Virus record (IMG/VR): IMGVR_UViG_2778261418_000010
Span: 1 to 6,796 of that record
Direction: 5' to 3' (one strand)
DNA: 6,796 nt
Source: a virus
Taxonomy: Duplodnaviria > Heunggongvirae > Uroviricota > Caudoviricetes
In this document: positions 1 to 6,796 of the stretch, in pieces
How positions within the stretch are numbered: position 1 is the stretch's first letter
How the letters are laid out: each line of letters begins with the position of its first letter
The notes under the pieces: model-generated
What the model was told of the DNA's origin: nothing
Databases searched by the model: none
Seen by the model: only the letters and a program-made list of their open reading frames with translations
Translations under genes and position numbers: made by a program

Positions 1-3000
1 CTCACAATATAGTTAAATGCGATGTTTTTGACGGTGTTTTCCGCGTTACCAGCAGCGTTAACGGTGATGGTGTGTCCGTGTGAGCCAATCGCAACGGAGT
101 GCGTATGAGCACCAATACCGACAGTATGCGCGTGTGCACCTGCACTTGCAGCAGTACCTGACACCGGGTGGGTATGCGCTCCGGCTGACGATGTGCCAGT
201 ACTCGAGCCTGCACGAGACGCACCTTTGAGGGCTTTATCGCCCTGCTCGGTATTGCCAGATGGGTAACAGGCAACCGTGTGTGTATGTGCCCCTGCAGAA
301 GCAGCCGTACCACTGACACTATGGGTGTGCGCTCCGGTGTTATTCGTGGTCTTAGTACCATAATCAAACGAACTGGTTGTTTTCGTCCCCAAATCCGTAC
401 TGGATGCACTGGCACTGTGGGCATGCGATTTAATACCGTCCTGTTCCTGAGACAATACAGCGCGACCACTGGCGGGTTTGCCCTTAATTGTCCATCCACG
501 CAGATCAGGGATCACACCAGATGGGTAAGCGGTTGCAAGTTTCGGGTAGGCAGATTTGTCAAAAGTCTGCCCCTGCATCAGGGCATAACCAGACGGAACG
601 GTATCTGATGGCCACGGGATTGGTGCGCCAACTGGATAAAACTCTGCCGGAGGATGGGCAGTAGTGTAAAGCTGCGCCCACGGCGACCAGTTGGCGTCGG
701 TTGTATCCCGTCGCGAACGAATAAATGCCGGAGCATGTGCACCGCTTGTACCACTCCACCCGATAAGCAATTCGCCCTCTCCAGCAGCATTCGCACCTCT
801 CATATGAAGCACATTGCCATAAGCAGTGGGGTAGCCATTGTTGTACGCCTCGTACATTTGAATGCCAGCAGTGCCTTGAGTAGAGCCGCTTAACGCCGTA
901 ACTCGGCCACGAGATACCAATGTATTAATGTTGATATCGCCTGAGCCATCAAACTTAACACCATTGATGTTTCTCGCTGTTTGCAACTTCGTAGCTGTTG
1001 AAGCATTACCCTTAATGCCGCCATTAACGGTAAGCGCCCCGGTTATTGTGCCTCCTGTTAATTTCAAAAAGAGCGCATCAATCCATCCAGCGAAACCCGG
1101 TTTATTGATATACAAGTTGCCATCATTGGCAAATATGCCACCACCTGGTGTTCTTAATGGCTGTGACATATCCGCCAAAGTTAACTGGCCTGACATTGAA
1201 TCACCAGCTCGATTAAAGTCCCGTCTCCAGCCTGGCGCATAATTGTCACCGTGGTTGATGTAGGTAAATTGTGCCTTGACGGTTCCGCCGTTCGTTGCGG
1301 TCGTGGGGGTGGTGATGCGAATAGTCATAGCCTCTCGAACCCCCATAACCTCAACTACAGCGCCAGAAAGTTGTATATTTCCACAACCGGTATCCGTGAT
1401 GATTTTATTGGCAGCGTAAGCCCATGAGCCTTTGCACATCCAGTATGAATGATTGAACGCCCCCTTAGACTCCAGCCACTCGATAAATTGCGCCGTCGTC
1501 CAGTTATTGCTGTCTCCTCCGATGCTGATATTGCCGCTGGCAGCTTTCGCTGCGCCAATATTTTTTACGAAGGTGTCTTTATCAGGTATATCTGCCCCGT
1601 TCTGGTTTTTCCGAAGGCGTGTTTCAGCGTTGTCGTATGCGGACTTTACCGCTTTCGGTGTTGCAGCGAGCGTCTCAGATTCGCTGCTGGTCTCACTGCT
1701 GAGCTGTACTATCCCTTTTTTCGTCGTGCTTGCATCCTCAAGCGCCACGGCAGATGCAATATCCTCTGCCCGTTTTGCAGCTGTCTCGGCGCGCGTTGCC
1801 GCGGATTCAGCCGCATTTTTGCTCTGAGCTGCCTCCGTCGCACTTCCTGCCGTCTCTGTCGCCTTCGTGGATGCCGTTGACGCACTCTCTGCCGCCGCTG
1901 ACGCCTGTCTGGTCGCCTCATCTTTTGAATCAGACGCAGATGATGCCGATGATGCCGCCGAACTGGCTGACGATGCGGCTGCCGTCTTTGAGGATTCTGC
2001 ACTGGTTTCCGACGCTTTCGCGTTCGTCTCGGATGTCTTCGCTGCGGAAGCTGACCTCGCTGCTGCCGTGGCCTGCTCAGTGGCTTCGCCAGCCTTCGTT
2101 GTGGCTGTTGAAGCGGACGATGCGGCGCTTTCTGCCGATTTCCCGGCGGCGGTGGCACTGGCGGCTGCCTCCTCTGCCTTAATGGATGCTTCACGGGCCG
2201 ATGATGCAGCTACTGTCTCAGAGCCTGCCGCAGCTGAGGCGCTCTGTTCCGCTGCCGTTTCAGAAGACTTAGCATTCGTCTCTGACGTTTTTGCCGCCTT
2301 CGCGGAATTTCCTGCCGCCGTTGCCGAGGAGGCTGCACTGCTGGCGCTTGTGGAGGCGTTCGTTTCTGATGATTTTGCCGCCTCTTTGGAGGCAGCCGCA
2401 TCTCTGGCTGAAGTGGCGGCTTCTGACGCTTTCGTCGTCGCAGTGGATGCAGAAGTGGCTGCTGATTGTTGTGACGCTGCCGCATTCGTTTCTGACGTTT
2501 TCGCGGCACCGGCACTGGTGGCCGCCGCGCTTTTTGAGGACTCTGCAGCGGCAGCACTTTTTGACGCTTCCGTGGCCTTTGTTGATGCCGTTCCTGCGCT
2601 GGAAGATGCTGACTGAGCAGACGATGCGGCCTGTTCGGCGGACGTGCTGGCTGCGCGTGCTGAGCCTGCGGCATCAGTCGCATGGGTTGCCGCCTCACTG
2701 GCAGATGTGCTGGCATCGCTGGCTGACTTCTTCGCGGCTGCCGTGTTCTGTGCCACTACGGACGCGTTACGCGCCACCTCTTCCACCATCAGTTCAAAAC
2801 GGCGCAGTGCCTCCGGACGGGCATCATCCTCCGTCATGGCACCGAGAAAATCATTCAGCGTCCCCGGCTTTGAATCCTCATACACGGTGATGGTCCCGGC
2901 ATGTGACGGCGGGAATCCTTCCACCATCAGAATAACGCTGTACTGACCGTACTCAACGTCCATGCTGTAACGCCCGGCTTCATCCGGATTTTCTGAGGCC

Positions 3001-3113
3001 AGCGTGTTCACCACGACCGTGGTACTGTTACGTTTTGCCTTCAGCTGAATGGTGCAGTTCTGTACCGGTTTCCCTGTTCCGTCTTTCAGTACACCTGAAA
3101 TCTTTACTGCCAT
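1..3113 (-). CDS. stf: Side tail fibre protein Stf, partial (1037 codons in window; last few codons and stop lie beyond position 1)
   Basis: Minus-strand frame with codons at [3k,3k+2] checked by hand for TTA/CTA/TCA on the plus strand: none from 3 to 3113. ATG at 3113-3111. Translation starts [37 protein letters not shown], continues through an Ala/Ser/Thr-rich shaft with (A/S)AKTSETNA repeats, and ends in window with GAHxH motifs and ...[23 protein letters not shown]. The N-terminus, shaft and C-terminus match lambda Stf as I recall it. Absent from the ORF track only because no stop falls inside the window. Confidence 0.9.
63..345 (-). repeat. His-rich G-(A/S)-H-x-H motif repeats in the Stf C-terminal tip domain (coding)
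   Basis: Hand translation gives GAHTHS, GAHTHT, GAHTHP, GAHAHT, GAHTHS and GSHGHT within about 95 residues. Corresponding DNA repeats of gcacacac/gcgcatac type are visible on the plus strand. Confidence 0.5.
2016..2502 (-). repeat. Degenerate in-frame repeats encoding (A/S)AKTSETNA(K/A)(A/S)S in the Stf shaft
   Basis: Four copies of K-(T/S)-S-E-T-N-A in the hand translation, at about 2016-2040, 2274-2292, 2358-2376 and 2484-2502. Plus-strand DNA shows the recurring motif attcgt(c/t)tctgacgtttt at about 2273-2297 and 2482-2506, and gttcgtctcggatgtcttcgc at about 2019-2040. Confidence 0.5.
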
Positions 3114-3115
3114 AT

Positions 3116-3122
3116 TCACCCC
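3116..3122 (-). promoter_or_regulatory. Putative Shine-Dalgarno for stf (minus-strand GGGGTGA)
   Basis: Minus-strand sequence GGGGTGAAT immediately precedes the stf ATG at 3113. The spacing is short, so the exact SD core is uncertain. Confidence 0.35.
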
Positions 3123-3124
3123 AC

Positions 3125-3151
3125 AAAAAAGCCCGCCTGAACCGGCGGGCT
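3125..3151 (-). terminator. Rho-independent terminator downstream of lom, directly upstream of stf
   Basis: Plus strand 3131-3137 gcccgcc and 3144-3150 ggcgggc form a perfect 7-bp GC-rich stem (8 bp with 3130/3151) around a 6-nt loop. Plus-strand A6 at 3125-3130 gives a U6 tract right after the hairpin on the minus-strand transcript. The plus-strand side has no U-tract, so it is oriented for minus-strand transcription. Confidence 0.7.
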
Positions 3152-3177
3152 GTCATAACACTGTGTTACCTGGCTAA

Positions 3178-3777
3178 TCAGAATTTATAACCGACACCCA
3201 CGATGAAACCGTCAGTGCGCCAGTCACCACTGCCGGAGCCTTCATAAGCAATATCAATGGCCACGGATTCGGTCGGGTTAAACTGCACGCCTGCCCCCCA
3301 CGCCAGAGACGTGTTGCTGTGGCGACTGTCATCACTTCCGGTCAGCACATCGTGCGTTTTCCCCTTGTTGTCAGTTACGCGGAGATAATCCCCGGAGAAA
3401 GTCGAAACACGGCTGTAAGCCACACCCGCCATCGCATATGTGCTGAACCATTCATTCACGCGTACAGACGGCCCCGCCATCACGCTGAACCAGCGGTTAC
3501 GAACGGAATCTTCATGCCAGCGGGTATCGCTGTAATGCGTTTTTTGCTCATCTTCGGCGTTGGCATAACTGAATGACGTCACCATCCCAAGCGTGTCCGT
3601 AAATTCATAACGGTATTTCACGTTAATACCATTCAGATCATCACCGCCTGGCATTTTCGTATGAGCATGAATATATCCTGCGCTTAATGTGCTATGGTGT
3701 TCTGCTGCACTCACTGTCGTACCCGATACGGTCAGGAATACTGCTGCGGACAAAAGAATTGCACATACTTTACGCAT
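3178..3777 (-). CDS. lom: Outer membrane protein Lom (Ail/Lom/OmpX-family beta-barrel), 199 aa
   Basis: ORF track 3178..3777. N-terminal Sec signal peptide MRKVCAILLSAAVFLTVSGTTVSA with an A-x-A-type cleavage site. C-terminal ...GFIVGVGYKF ends in Phe, as is typical of outer-membrane beta-barrels. Strong similarity to lambda Lom as I recall it (GINVKYRYEFTDTLG, RWHEDSVRNRWFSVMAGPSVRVNEWFS, NTSLAWGAGVQFNPTESVAIDIAYEGSGSGDWRTDGF). Position between J and stf matches lambda gene order. Confidence 0.95.
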   Translation of the reverse strand: MRKVCAILLSAAVFLTVSGTTVSAAEHHSTLSAGYIHAHTKMPGGDDLNGINVKYRYEFTDTLGMVTSFSYANAEDEQKTHYSDTRWHEDSVRNRWFSVMAGPSVRVNEWFSTYAMAGVAYSRVSTFSGDYLRVTDNKGKTHDVLTGSDDSRHSNTSLAWGAGVQFNPTESVAIDIAYEGSGSGDWRTDGFIVGVGYKF

Positions 3778-3782
3778 AATTA

Positions 3783-3788
3783 CCTCTC
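3783..3788 (-). promoter_or_regulatory. Shine-Dalgarno for lom (minus-strand GAGAGG)
   Basis: Minus-strand GAGAGGTAATT precedes the ATG at 3777-3775; GAGAGG sits 5 nt upstream of the start. Confidence 0.5.
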
Positions 3789-3801
3789 ACTTTTCTGCAA
3801 T

Positions 3802-3825
3802 AAAAAAGGCGCCATTTCTGGCGCC
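3802..3825 (-). terminator. Rho-independent terminator between J and lom (tJ-like)
   Basis: Plus strand 3808-3813 ggcgcc and 3820-3825 ggcgcc form a 6-bp all-GC stem around a 6-nt loop (atttct). Plus-strand A6 at 3802-3807 gives minus-strand RNA GGCGCCAGAAAUGGCGCC-UUUUUUAUU. Lies 20 nt after the J stop codon (3845-3847). Confidence 0.7.
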
Positions 3826-3844
3826 CGGTTTGGGTTTTAAACAT

Positions 3845-6796
3845 TCAGCTGATACTGATACCAGCTGTGGATTTTTTCATAATGACCACAAGCAAATCGC
3901 TGATAGTCGCTGAAGGATAATAATTCCCGTTTGACGCAGAAACTGAAAACTCAAGAGTTATTCCTCCAGAACCGGCTGGCATATCCATGATGCCTGTGTA
4001 AATGGCTGTAACATCGTTGGTCGATTTGTCATAAATTACAGAACCATTCTTTTTTACAACAAGACGACAGGATGAATAATATTCACTGTTTGTGGATGCC
4101 TGCCGGTGCTTCGCCCCACGAAACGCAACAGCAGGAATGACAATTTGTCTGTCATATTTTTGATCATCATCTATCCTCACAGTAATCGTACCTGACGGCC
4201 ACGGTTTAAATTCTGATTCGCGCGGATCATGTGGAAAAGCCTTTCCCACCGCTTTGACAATATCGCCCTCAATCTGACTGGCAGACAGTTTTCCTTTTAT
4301 CAGACAGTTCTCATTAATCGTGACATTGTTGAGCGTCCCGGCGTTCGCATTCACACTGCCACTGATATCCGCATTTTTAGCAGTCAGCTTTCCGTCAGGT
4401 GTCAGGGAGAATGCCGGAGGATTACCACCACTGGTAATCGTGGGAGCAATAAGGAACTTGATCAGCGCCTCATTAATAAACGTCTGTCCGCCCTGTGTGA
4501 CCAGTGCAGGAGTGGTGTTACCATTCGCCGGGTTAATAAATGCCACCCGGTCTGCAGCCAGAAGCACCTGACTCTGCATGCCGTCCTGGGTATTCTCAAT
4601 ACCGGCACCGATACCCGCAATATAAAGGCGTCCATCCTTCATCTGTTGCAGCTTCACAGCCCACATACTGTTCAGGTTATTACTGGTGTCAACCTGAACC
4701 TTCTGTATCTGCTGGATTGCTGCGCTCTGGTCTTTCAGTGTCTTGTTAACGGTCTCGGTGATTTCATTGCTGACATTCGTAATGGATGTCCTGATTTCAG
4801 CCAGATCCGGGGCAAGCTGACCGTTATCAATTTGTGTCCACAGCTCCTGGGCCAGATGTGTTTTCCCTATCTCTCCTTTGAAAAAATCCAGATAGCCGGA
4901 CGCATCATTACTCGGCTGGCCAACAGCTTCCACAAATACCGATTTGCCGACGGTGTTCACACTGCGAACATAAAAATAATAATCATGGCCCGGCCTGATA
5001 TTGATACTGGCAGCTATCCAGCACTGCGCCGTACCAAGATAACGCGCGCTGGTTTCAACCTGCCTGATATCGGTAATCCGCTTTTCCGAAAACCAGAACT
5101 CAAACTGTACCGTCGGATCATAAACCGCAAGATGCGGCGTGGCGGTGATCTGAAAATAACCCGGCGTCAGCTCAATCCGCGACGGTGCTGCCGGTGCGGC
5201 AATCCGGAACGATACCGATGCCGGATCGCCCTGCTGCTCCCAGGCATTTGCCGCCCGGACTGTCAGCCTGTAGTTTCCCAGCGCCAGTTGCGTGAAGCGG
5301 TATGTGGTTTCCGTCGTCCGGGCTGTGCTGACCAGCCGCTCACTGCCGTCTTCCGCTGTCACGGTCAGACGAAGCAGGAAGCTCACGCCCTTCACCACCT
5401 TCGGCGTATCCCAGCGCGCCAGCACCTGATATTCCCCGCTGTCTGCGGTGACTTCGGCAGTCAGGTGCTGCACCGCTGGCGGCGTGACACCATTCACCGT
5501 GCCGCTCTGGTCGCCGTCAAAGTGCGCCCCGTTATCCACGATGGCTTCTTTTTCCGGTATATGCTGCACGGCGGTGATGGCATACGTGCCGTCGTCGTTC
5601 TCACGGATACTCACGCAGCGGAACAGGCGCTGGCGCAGCGTCGGCAGCTTCAGCCCCCACACGCTGTATTCAGCAACGCCGTCAGGAACCCGGCTCACTT
5701 TCACCTTCACGCCGTCGGTGACGGACTGAACCTCCACGCTGACCGGATTGCCACTTCCGTCAACCAGGCTTATCAGCGTGGTACCGGAGGATGGCAGCGT
5801 GATTTCACGGTCGAGCGTCAGCGTCCGGGTCTGGCTGTTTACCGCCAGCACGCGCCCGCCGGTGCTGATACCGGCATAGTCATCATCGCAGATTTCAATG
5901 ACATCGCCCGGTACATGGCGAAGCCCTTCGGCACCCACGCTGAAGTCCACGGTCTGCGTTTCCAGCAGTTCTGTTTTAATCAGCCACAGCCCGGCGCGAT
6001 GTGCCTGCCCCCGGCTGGTACAGCCAAAGGCATCCATCTTCGTGACGTTACGACCGTAACGGGCAATGGCCTGCGTGTCCTCCACAAGCTCTGTCGCCGT
6101 CTCCCAGCCGTTATTCGGGTCAATCCAGTTCACCTCAACGGCATTATGGCGGTCCTTCAGGGCGCTGAAGCTGTAGCGGAACGGCGCGCCATCATCCGGC
6201 ATCACCACATTACTGCGGTTATAGGTCCACACCTTATCCGAGGGTCGGTCCTGCACGAACGTCAGCGTCTGCCCGTTCCATACCGGCATACAGCGCATCG
6301 CCGAGCAGAAATCACTGAGCACATCCCACGCCTTACGCTGTGTGGTCAGGTACGCATTACAGGTGATGCGCGGCTCCGTGCCGCCAAAGCCGTCCGGCAC
6401 TGACTGGTCGCAGTACTGGCCGATGACATACAGCGCCCATTTATCGACATCCGCCGCACCAAGACGTTTTCCCATGCCGTAGCGCGGATGGGTCAGCATA
6501 TCCCACAGACACCAGGCCGGGTTGTTGCTGTATGCCGGTTTAAACGTTCCGTCCCAGATACCGCTGTATTGCCGCGTCTGCGGGTTATAATTCGACGGCA
6601 CCTGCAGAATACGCCCGCGAAGATGATAATTACGGCTCACCTGCTGGCTGCCGAACTGCTCCGAATCCACCTGCACGCCGACCAGTGCCGTGTTCGGGTA
6701 GCACTGTTTCACATCGATAATTTCGGTGTATGACGACCAGAGCGTTTTGTTCTGCAGCTGGTCTGTGGTGCTGTCCGGCGTCATCCTGCGCATCCG
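3845..6796 (-). CDS. J: Host specificity / central tail fibre (tail tip) protein J, partial (984 codons in window; N-terminal ~150 aa beyond window end)
   Basis: ORF track 3845..6793, and the same frame stays open to the window edge at 6796. Translation ([54 protein letters not shown]..., ...[47 protein letters not shown]...) matches lambda gpJ as I recall it over most of its length. Stop TGA at 3845-3847. Synteny J-lom-stf as in lambda. Confidence 0.93.

Follow-up and report, generated by a model that had tools for sequence, protein, structure and literature searches.

The window, that is, the whole stretch of 6,796 nucleotides that was analysed (positions 1 to 6,796 of IMG/VR record IMGVR_UViG_2778261418_000010), carries on its minus strand the 3′ part of the J gene of a lambda-like prophage (3845..6796), which encodes gpJ, the tip attachment or central tail fibre protein. 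The open reading frame (3845-6793) ends with a stop codon at 3845-3847 and is truncated at the window end, beyond which lie the N-terminal 180 residues of J. The full-length protein in related prophages comprises 1162 residues, 982 of which fall within the window. The peptides quoted in an earlier, sequence-only reading of this DNA were found in the translation of this minus-strand frame. The frame encodes the Phage-tail_3, Ig_J, Ig_J_second, Phage_Tail_Tip and Ig_GpJ_C domains, all of which exceed the Pfam cut-offs (PF13550, 149 bits; PF24421, 137; PF24489, 135; PF09327, 103; PF12421, 133). This combination of Phage-tail_3, two Ig/FNIII domains, the Phage_Tail_Tip fibre and a C-terminal Ig_GpJ_C domain is that of gpJ, and the gene is placed as gpJ is in lambdoid tail operons: it is followed in the window by lom and stf, and the genes that precede it (tape measure, M, L, K and I) are present in two near-identical prophages, CH4799 and L092. 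Both prophages have a complete set of head and tail genes around J, which is annotated as gpJ in CH4799.

A terminator-like hairpin followed by a T-run (3807..3826, minus strand) lies directly 3′ of the J stop codon, and a terminator is annotated at the equivalent position in phage 21. The lom gene (3178..3777, minus strand) encodes an Ail/Lom outer-membrane β-barrel (PF06316, E = 5.6e-122). A plus-strand open reading frame of 724 residues (4229-6403) runs antisense to J in GC-rich DNA and was dismissed as a reading-frame artefact. Scanning of the window detected neither Rfam families nor any meaningful tandem repeats, and the junctions are free of Chi sites.

The tail tip is a trimer of J, the conserved N-terminal part of which is the hub joining the tail tube. 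The C-terminal part consists of a helical shaft, a β-prism fibre and, at the very end, an Ig-like receptor-binding domain (RBD). In the window, the hub and the FNIII/Ig domains constitute a conserved lambda-type body (4907..6796, minus strand), with at least 90% DNA identity to every lambdoid J compared and dS values of 0.14-0.17 against all comparators. With lambda itself (gpJ reference NP_040600 / UniProt P03749; structures 8IYK, 8XCG, 8XCI, 8XCJ and 8XCK), the nucleotide identity is 94.7% over 6796-4837. When the two proteins were compared in blocks of 30 residues, 24-30 residues per block were identical up to residue 810, 4-17 at 811-960, 29 at 961-990 and 9-16 thereafter. The break with lambda J that had been suspected after GYLDFFKG is therefore real, as the identity of at least 90% extends to about 4907 and then collapses.

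The similarity to lambda is lost in the α-helical shaft (4676..4918, minus strand; approximate boundaries from the alignment with lambda J), a domain named as in PMC11101478. The shaft is a long variant, with 28 residues (21 + 7) more than that of lambda. Its DNA is only 27-62% identical to lambda, as compared to 83-93% for PhiR46_1, phage 21 and prophage J genes, and its dS against the long-shaft types is 0.5-0.6. Of 89 loci, 74 have the long form and 15 the short one. A heptad-register test on the long shaft gave no clear register.

In the central straight fibre, DNA identity and dS delimit a patch of 30 residues (4457..4546, minus strand; full-J residues 930-959), in which about 10 mostly conservative substitutions occur where other J proteins are nearly invariant. 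The patch DNA is about 61% identical to every comparator and saturated in dS against all of them. The patch peptide is present in only 4 of 91 loci and was seen only together with this RBD. The fibre base is formed by a conserved island (4277..4456, minus strand). The sequence-only reading had quoted 33 residues of it as conserved, and identity to lambda J indeed recovers over this stretch. The island DNA is 76-91% identical to all comparators, and at residues 976-1005 the synonymous-codon difference is only 0.11-0.15 from lambda, ARS-C301 (L004) and the J of locus L015. The island contains lambda residue 964, the joint of the engineered gpJ chimeras (PMC11338833, methods), and it is probably here that crossovers exchange the RBD.

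The end domain (3848..4276, minus strand; full-J residues 1020-1162) is a genuine gpJ C-terminal RBD, as revealed by PF12421, AlphaFold2 and Foldseek. The Ig_GpJ_C match spans 3848-4249 and covers profile positions 1-135 of 135. The AlphaFold2 monomer model (pLDDT 85) adopts the Ig-like β-sandwich fold of the solved gpJ RBDs, with 9wcb, 9wca, 8xck and 8xcj as the top Foldseek matches (E = 1e-19 to 1e-21, TM-score 0.73-0.75). The sequence matches to solved structures were A8 gpJ713 (E = 2e-116) and lambda gpJ (E = 1e-98). This RBD fold is common to LamB-binding and OmpC-binding forms.

The allele itself is distinct. The DNA match to lambda ends at 4293, and the last 143 residues are identical to lambda J at only 59 of 145 aligned positions (41%). 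The earlier impression that the last 150 or so residues are unlike lambda J thus holds, and the domain falls far below the >90% identity over this region by which a LamB-specific, lambda-type allele would be recognized. The RBD shares 54% (80/147) of its residues with A8, 68% with the PhiR46_1 type, 80% with L016 and 85% with L015. Its synonymous sites are saturated against most alleles, with dS of 0.74-0.83 against the nearest RBDs, those of L015 and L016. As in every other segment of J, dN/dS is about 0.1, which counts in favour of a functional domain. Indels and the lowest identities to the window sequence (0.15-0.54) are found in four predicted loops, as compared to 0.70-0.86 in the strands, the top loops and the C-terminal tail. 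Variability is only modestly enriched (Mann-Whitney p = 0.025) in the predicted bottom loops, which were assigned by strand order in the monomer model and not by coordinates.

The base composition changes along the same gene. The hand counts of G+C in the sequence-only reading (18/60 at 4021-4080 and 39/60 at 5401-5460) were exact, and segmentation confirmed its AT-rich 3′ end of J: GC is not uniform and steps down along the gene, from 58.9% at 4881-6796 to 50.4% at 4351-4880 and 43.7% at 3845-4350. GC3 falls in three tiers, 0.734 (6793-5135), 0.547 (5134-4301) and 0.371 (4300-3848). The first split was matched by 0 of 300 permutations and the second by 13 of 1000, and the lowest tier differs from the middle one (Fisher, p = 6e-4) and from the body (p = 4e-16). 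The first step, near residue 733, is found in lambda J too and is therefore a feature of the family. The second, at about 4300, is specific to this RBD allele and coincides with the identity break. Over the last 390 nucleotides of J, GC3 is 0.36, whereas lambda has 0.61 and five other J genes have 0.47-0.56, and the value for the RBD (0.37) is the lowest among the 35 unique RBD variants sampled (median 0.54). The AT-rich tract extends past the J stop codon, through the intergenic terminator and the first 150 nucleotides of lom (GC3 0.32), to about 3628.

Comparison with known systems places this J among the lambdoid gpJ proteins. It resembles lambda gpJ, which binds LamB, in the gene position (with the tail assembly genes preceding it, and lom and stf following), the domain order, the Ig-like RBD fold, the island at the fibre base and the closely matching body, but differs in the longer shaft, the replaced fibre patch, and the RBD with its loop indels and low GC3 (0.37, as compared to 0.62 in lambda). 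The best match in both sequence and fold among the solved structures is the A8 gpJ chimera, determined in a closed form (9WCA) and in an open form with OmpC G17 of E. coli EDL933 (9WCB) (PMC11338833). However, A8 carries a phage 21-type RBD that differs from this one in loop lengths and sequences, and it is an engineered fusion, whereas this J is a natural mosaic in which the shaft and the fibre are also different. The PhiR46_1 type, common in prophages and Stx phages (e.g. PV340565.1, PPompW prophages and VT1-Sakai), shares the long shaft and the lom neighbourhood, and its RBDs form the nearest large cluster to this one. On the other hand, it is saturated at the RBD synonymous sites, has an RBD GC3 of 0.47-0.55 and is without the fibre patch. 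Our literature search found no paper on PhiR phages or their receptors and no receptor assignment for the PhiR46_1-type J.

The closest match to the whole window is a Salmonella Rissen-labelled assembly, GCA_021094645.1 (99.88% identical), whose gpJ has an identical RBD and 1 difference over 982 residues. The gpJ of E. coli CH4799 and other Escherichia (WP_000515508.1) also has an identical RBD, with 6 differences over the 982 residues. The annotation of both proteins is limited to host specificity protein J and gives no allele or receptor information. CH4799 is the best complete E. coli genome (98.8% identical to the window), but it has a different stf tip and a J body with a synonymous divergence of 6%. 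Three IMG/VR contigs are 98.6-99.1% identical to the window. The RBD allele is rare: among 5,426 complete E. coli genomes a single one carries it, and E. fergusonii contributes a few further records, as judged without the word-indexed protein search, which returned almost only short J fragments. The allele appears to move between Escherichia species and Salmonella. Recent entry of the AT-rich RBD and the fibre patch into Escherichia/Salmonella lambdoids from phages of lower-GC hosts, bringing recognition of a receptor or a range of porin variants undescribed for gpJ, would explain the near-identical allele in E. coli, E. fergusonii and a Salmonella genome, and we regard it as improbable. When such a donor was sought, the matches in GenBank phages reached at most 72% protein identity, with the top ones all from Escherichia or Stx phages, and a peptide-pattern-limited search of GTDB species representatives returned only E. 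ruysiae and Shigella, at up to 67%; no donor lineage of comparably low GC emerged from these searches.

The distal part of J comprises at least four segments with different histories, namely the shaft, the fibre patch, the island and the RBD, and the RBD is itself a sub-mosaic relative to its nearest relatives. The sequence-only reading had proposed a swapped module; an RBD allele of different, older history and distinct composition is indeed present, but not as a single swapped block. The RBD has a much longer history than the body, its dS being saturated, as compared to 0.15 in the body. Short and long shafts are each found with several RBD types, indicating that shaft and RBD assort independently; in L015, a related RBD is paired with a lambda-type short shaft, and J bodies that differ among E. 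coli, E. fergusonii and a Salmonella assembly carry one and the same RBD. We conclude with high confidence that J is mosaic through module exchange and not through local decay. Past homologous recombination in short conserved stretches has joined the lambda-type body to three distal parts, namely the common long shaft variant, a rare lower-fibre variant and the rare AT-rich RBD allele.

Two alternatives are disfavoured. Without any exchange, and under strong diversifying selection by host receptor variation, the C-terminus could have diverged in place while the body was conserved, consistent with the concentration of variation in the predicted receptor-facing loops and with experimental evolution of lambda J, which concentrates changes in the RBD (cited in PMC11101478). 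This is very unlikely in view of the saturation of synonymous sites in the RBD, as opposed to 0.15 in the body, a dN/dS that is not >1, the GC3 shift from 0.73 to 0.37, the varied combinations of shaft and RBD types, and RBD DNA that is 100% identical between two J genes with a 6% synonymous difference in their bodies. The AT-rich end could instead be no working domain but the product of gene decay in a cryptic prophage, or of faulty assembly, since prophages often decay and databases contain many fragmentary E. coli J genes. Here, however, the frame is intact to the conserved final 10 residues, the Pfam domain is complete, the low dN/dS is maintained, the AlphaFold2 model is confident, full head and tail gene sets flank J in CH4799 and L092, and the same junctions recur in at least five independent assemblies, so that this explanation is hardly credible. 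It is likely that this J is a mosaic whose porin-type RBD is functional and has an altered specificity. The sequence-only reading had suggested lambda-type tail attachment, which fits the lambda-type body, together with a different receptor specificity, which is plausible. The exchanged RBD might nevertheless still bind LamB, its divergence being neutral or tracking the LamB variants of other hosts. The fold is that of the LamB-binding domain, and E. coli, E. fergusonii and the Salmonella assembly, in which the allele occurs, all have LamB. This is unlikely given the 41% identity to the lambda RBD, the indels in three of the four predicted contact loops, the OmpC binding of the closer solved relative, and the natural non-lambda gpJ ends (Brodel et al.), which delivered DNA into a lamB deletion strain via OmpC (PMC11338833).

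In lambda J, a few point mutations can switch the receptor, and overall identity is thus a poor predictor of specificity. Furthermore, with just 54% identity between the RBD and the A8 domain that binds OmpC, the transfer of the receptor by homology is weak. The loops are replaced, with indels relative to lambda, and OmpC is the receptor of the nearest solved relative, so LamB is probably not the receptor here. In our view, a trimeric porin is to be preferred to LamB, and OmpC is the most likely one. The chance that the receptor is OmpC or a variant of it is roughly even, some other protein is a weaker possibility, LamB would be unlikely and OmpF more unlikely still. Exchange of gpJ at the conserved island, as in A8, yields an RBD that works on the lambda body and retargets lambda from LamB to OmpC (PMC11338833). 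In the binding and trigger mechanism described for gpJ, the RBD trimer places four bottom loops into a trimeric porin and the tail opens (PMC11101478). By analogy, the three RBDs of this J would reach with their variable bottom loops into the mouths of a trimeric porin of the outer membrane; on binding, the RBDs would be spread apart, and a twist travelling up the fibre would open the tail tip so that the DNA can be ejected.

Lambdoid phages change their host range by exchanging modules at the end of J, a textbook route that has already been applied to retarget lambda-based DNA delivery particles. The J end described here represents the ordinary module shuffling of lambdoid phages, which has probably changed the outer-membrane porin that is used. 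The understanding of gpJ systems is not changed by this allele. The analysis adds a rare, uncharacterised RBD allele, with a natural junction at the conserved stretch that engineers picked; the allele could serve as an extra retargeting part and as a small case study of intragenic recombination.

All genes of the window are encoded on the minus strand. J (3845-6793), which encodes the tip attachment protein gpJ of a lambda-like prophage, runs past the window end and lacks its first 180 residues; lom (3178-3777), of the Ail/Lom family, comes next, and the side tail fibre gene stf begins at 3113 and continues beyond the window start. A 724-aa plus-strand ORF (4229-6403), antisense to J in GC-rich coding DNA, looks like a reading-frame artefact and not a gene. 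The lambdoid prophage of E. coli CH4799, adjoining prfC, is 98.8% identical to the window across 5.2 kb; its J encodes 1162 aa and is preceded by a complete head and tail gene set. The closest sequence found was a prophage at the same site, adjoining prfC (locus L092, 10538-17333), in assembly GCA_021094645.1, labelled Salmonella enterica serovar Rissen, which differs from window 1-6796 at 8 of 6796 positions (99.88% identity, gap-free). Outside the window, L092 carries an additional 112-aa ORF between tail genes I and J (9596-9934), without a Pfam match and absent from CH4799. The stf portion (1-3113) is mosaic, being near-identical to CH4799 down to 1576, without a match in 1576-1197 and about 88% identical beyond that; it contains a long Ala/Ser/Thr-rich repeat region and His-rich GAHTH/GAHAH repeats close to its end.

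Up to residue 810 (full-J numbering), 24-30 of 30 residues in each block are identical to lambda J. As the sequence-only reading had proposed, the two proteins diverge after GYLDFFKG, where identity falls to 4-17 of 30. The island that it quoted as conserved (residues 961-990) retains 29 of 30 identities, and beyond it 9-16 of 30 residues match as far as the end of J. At the DNA level, similarity to lambda ends at 4837 and resumes only as a 73% stretch (4666-4293). Over the last 143 residues, identity to lambda amounts to 41%, as against the identity above 90% that would have spoken against a lambda-unlike C-terminus; together with the loss of DNA similarity, this value thus leaves the claim of a different C-terminus standing.

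The end domain belongs, as an ordinary member, to the gpJ C-terminal receptor-binding domain (RBD) family. Its match to Pfam Ig_GpJ_C (PF12421) is full-length and scores 133 bits (cut-off 26), and in the PDB the top hits by sequence are "A8 gpJ 713" (E = 2e-116) followed by lambda gpJ (E = 1e-98). By Foldseek, the AlphaFold2 model of the last 176 residues (mean pLDDT 85) most closely resembles, at TM-scores of 0.73-0.75, the structures 9WCB (A8 gpJ with OmpC), 9WCA, 8XCK and 8XCJ (lambda gpJ with LamB). In A8, which is a lambda gpJ altered by engineering, the end was taken from a natural E. coli gpJ, and DNA is delivered via OmpC in place of LamB (PMC11338833). At the protein level, the RBD is 85% and 80% identical to those of the IMG/VR loci L015 and L016, 68% to the abundant PhiR46_1/prophage type, 54% to A8 and 53% to phage 21.

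The base composition of J is not uniform, with G+C contents of 58.9% in 4881-6796, 50.4% in 4351-4880 and 43.7% in 3845-4350; the earlier hand counts of 18/60 in 4021-4080 and 39/60 in 5401-5460 proved exact on recount. Likelihood segmentation of third-codon-position GC (GC3) divided J into three tiers, of 0.73 (6793-5135), 0.55 (5134-4301) and 0.37 (4300-3848). The first split, near 5134, was reached in 0/300 permutations and the second, near 4300, in 13/1000, and Fisher tests separated the last tier from the middle tier (p = 6e-4) and from the body (p = 4e-16). Since the first step occurs at the same place in lambda J, it is a property of the gene family; the second is a property of this allele. 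The final 390 nt of J have a GC3 of 0.36, as compared to 0.61 in lambda and 0.47-0.56 in five other J genes, and the allele has the lowest GC3 among the 35 unique end-domain variants from 91 loci (median 0.54). The AT-rich tract goes beyond the J stop codon, over a terminator-like hairpin at 3826-3807 and into lom, the first 150 nt of which have a GC3 of 0.32. An AT-rich stretch is present as had been claimed (roughly 3845-4350), with a real extent of about 3628-4300. The lom gene lies between two terminator-like hairpins with T-runs (3130-3151 and 3807-3826, minus strand) and has the appearance of a self-contained gene insertion.

We compared J with other J genes segment by segment, by DNA identity and synonymous divergence (dS), naming the domains after the lambda structure (PMC11101478). 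The body (6796-4907) is at least 90% identical to every lambdoid J compared, with a dS of 0.14-0.17. The alpha-helical shaft (about 4918-4676) is 83-93% identical to PhiR46_1, phage 21 and many prophages, with a dS of 0.5-0.6 against long-shaft types and saturation against lambda. It exceeds the lambda shaft by 28 aa, in two gaps (21 and 7 residues), and is of the commoner, long form (74/89 loci, versus 15/89 for the short form of lambda). A simple heptad-register test of the shaft (4676-4918) gave no clear register. Within the fibre, a patch at residues 930-959 (4546-4457) is only about 61% identical to everything compared, with saturated dS. Its peptide, [26 protein letters not shown], stands where other J proteins are nearly invariant, and is present in only 4/91 loci, each time with this RBD. 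The island (4456-4277) is 76-91% identical to all genes compared, with an overall dS of about 0.55, but over residues 976-1005 the fraction of synonymous codons differing from lambda, L004 (ARS-C301) and L015 is only 0.11-0.15, which points to recently shared DNA. The engineered gpJ junction of Brodel et al. falls in the same island (PMC11338833). Finally, the RBD (4276-3848) is 40-56% identical to lambda and 52-73% to the others, with dS saturated against most J genes and 0.74-0.83 against L015 and L016.

These data support the construction of the J end by exchange, as opposed to local divergence. The dS of the RBD and the patch exceeds that of the body at least tenfold. The dN/dS of about 0.1 in every segment indicates purifying selection on the RBD, which as a whole shows neither decay nor rapid evolution. 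The modules assort independently: in L015, an RBD 85% identical to this one sits on the short, lambda-type shaft, and several RBD types occur with each shaft type, long and short. The RBD is also a sub-mosaic in its own right, as its centre (residues 1066-1135) was recently shared with L015 and L016, whereas its first part, carrying the long loop [15 protein letters not shown], was not. The window and CH4799 are identical throughout about 5626-3459, while the J body upstream of 5626 is a patchy 91-100% identical, with 6% of synonymous sites differing. The swapped-module interpretation of the sequence-only reading is supported, with several nested modules in place of a single block. A donor lineage with matching low GC was not found among GenBank phages or, by peptide patterns, among GTDB species representatives. 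Separately, in the body at 5627-6796, short patches change their nearest relative (5806-5717 is 91% identical to CH4799 and 100% to PhiR46_1 and RM11911), which suggests frequent small gene-conversion tracts within the conserved part.

In lambda gpJ, four bottom loops of the trimeric RBDs insert into the trimeric porin and thereby trigger tail opening: the RBD bases move away from one another, newly formed hydrogen bonds draw the fibre into a more compact, twisted form, and the shaft flips and the hub opens (PMC11101478). By homology, the J of the window would use the same mechanism. Four RBD loops (46-61, 93-96, 120-123 and 149-160 of the 176-residue fragment), assigned from strand order in the monomer model and not from coordinates, are predicted to face the receptor. 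Insertions and deletions between RBD types sit in these loops, where identity to the window sequence is lowest (0.15-0.54, as compared to 0.70-0.86 in the strands, top loops and C-terminal tail); their entropy difference is modest (p = 0.025). A receptor change relative to lambda J is probable. Given the replacement of the predicted contact loops, and given that OmpC is bound by the nearest solved relative, LamB seems unlikely as the receptor and OmpC would be the best single guess. A few point mutations are known to give lambda J the use of OmpF (cited in PMC11101478), and specificity can therefore be only weakly predicted from overall identity.

The RBD DNA was found at 99% identity or above in 1/5,426 complete E. 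coli genomes (next best match 75%). Three IMG/VR prophage contigs also carry it, and the exact CH4799 J protein is on record for 50 contigs. Three E. fergusonii J proteins and the Salmonella Rissen assembly have this RBD or one nearly identical to it, and the same J is likewise present in E. fergusonii. The chromosomal flank of the prophage in that assembly is only 84% identical to E. coli, which fits a host of a different genus, and nearly the same tail module thus appears to be present in a different genus. What is seen here is a familiar phenomenon, in a domain family that is already curated and structurally solved, and RefSeq already lists this exact protein as J. The allele itself is uncharacterised, and is of value chiefly for a possible new retargeting specificity and for its apparent cross-genus spread.
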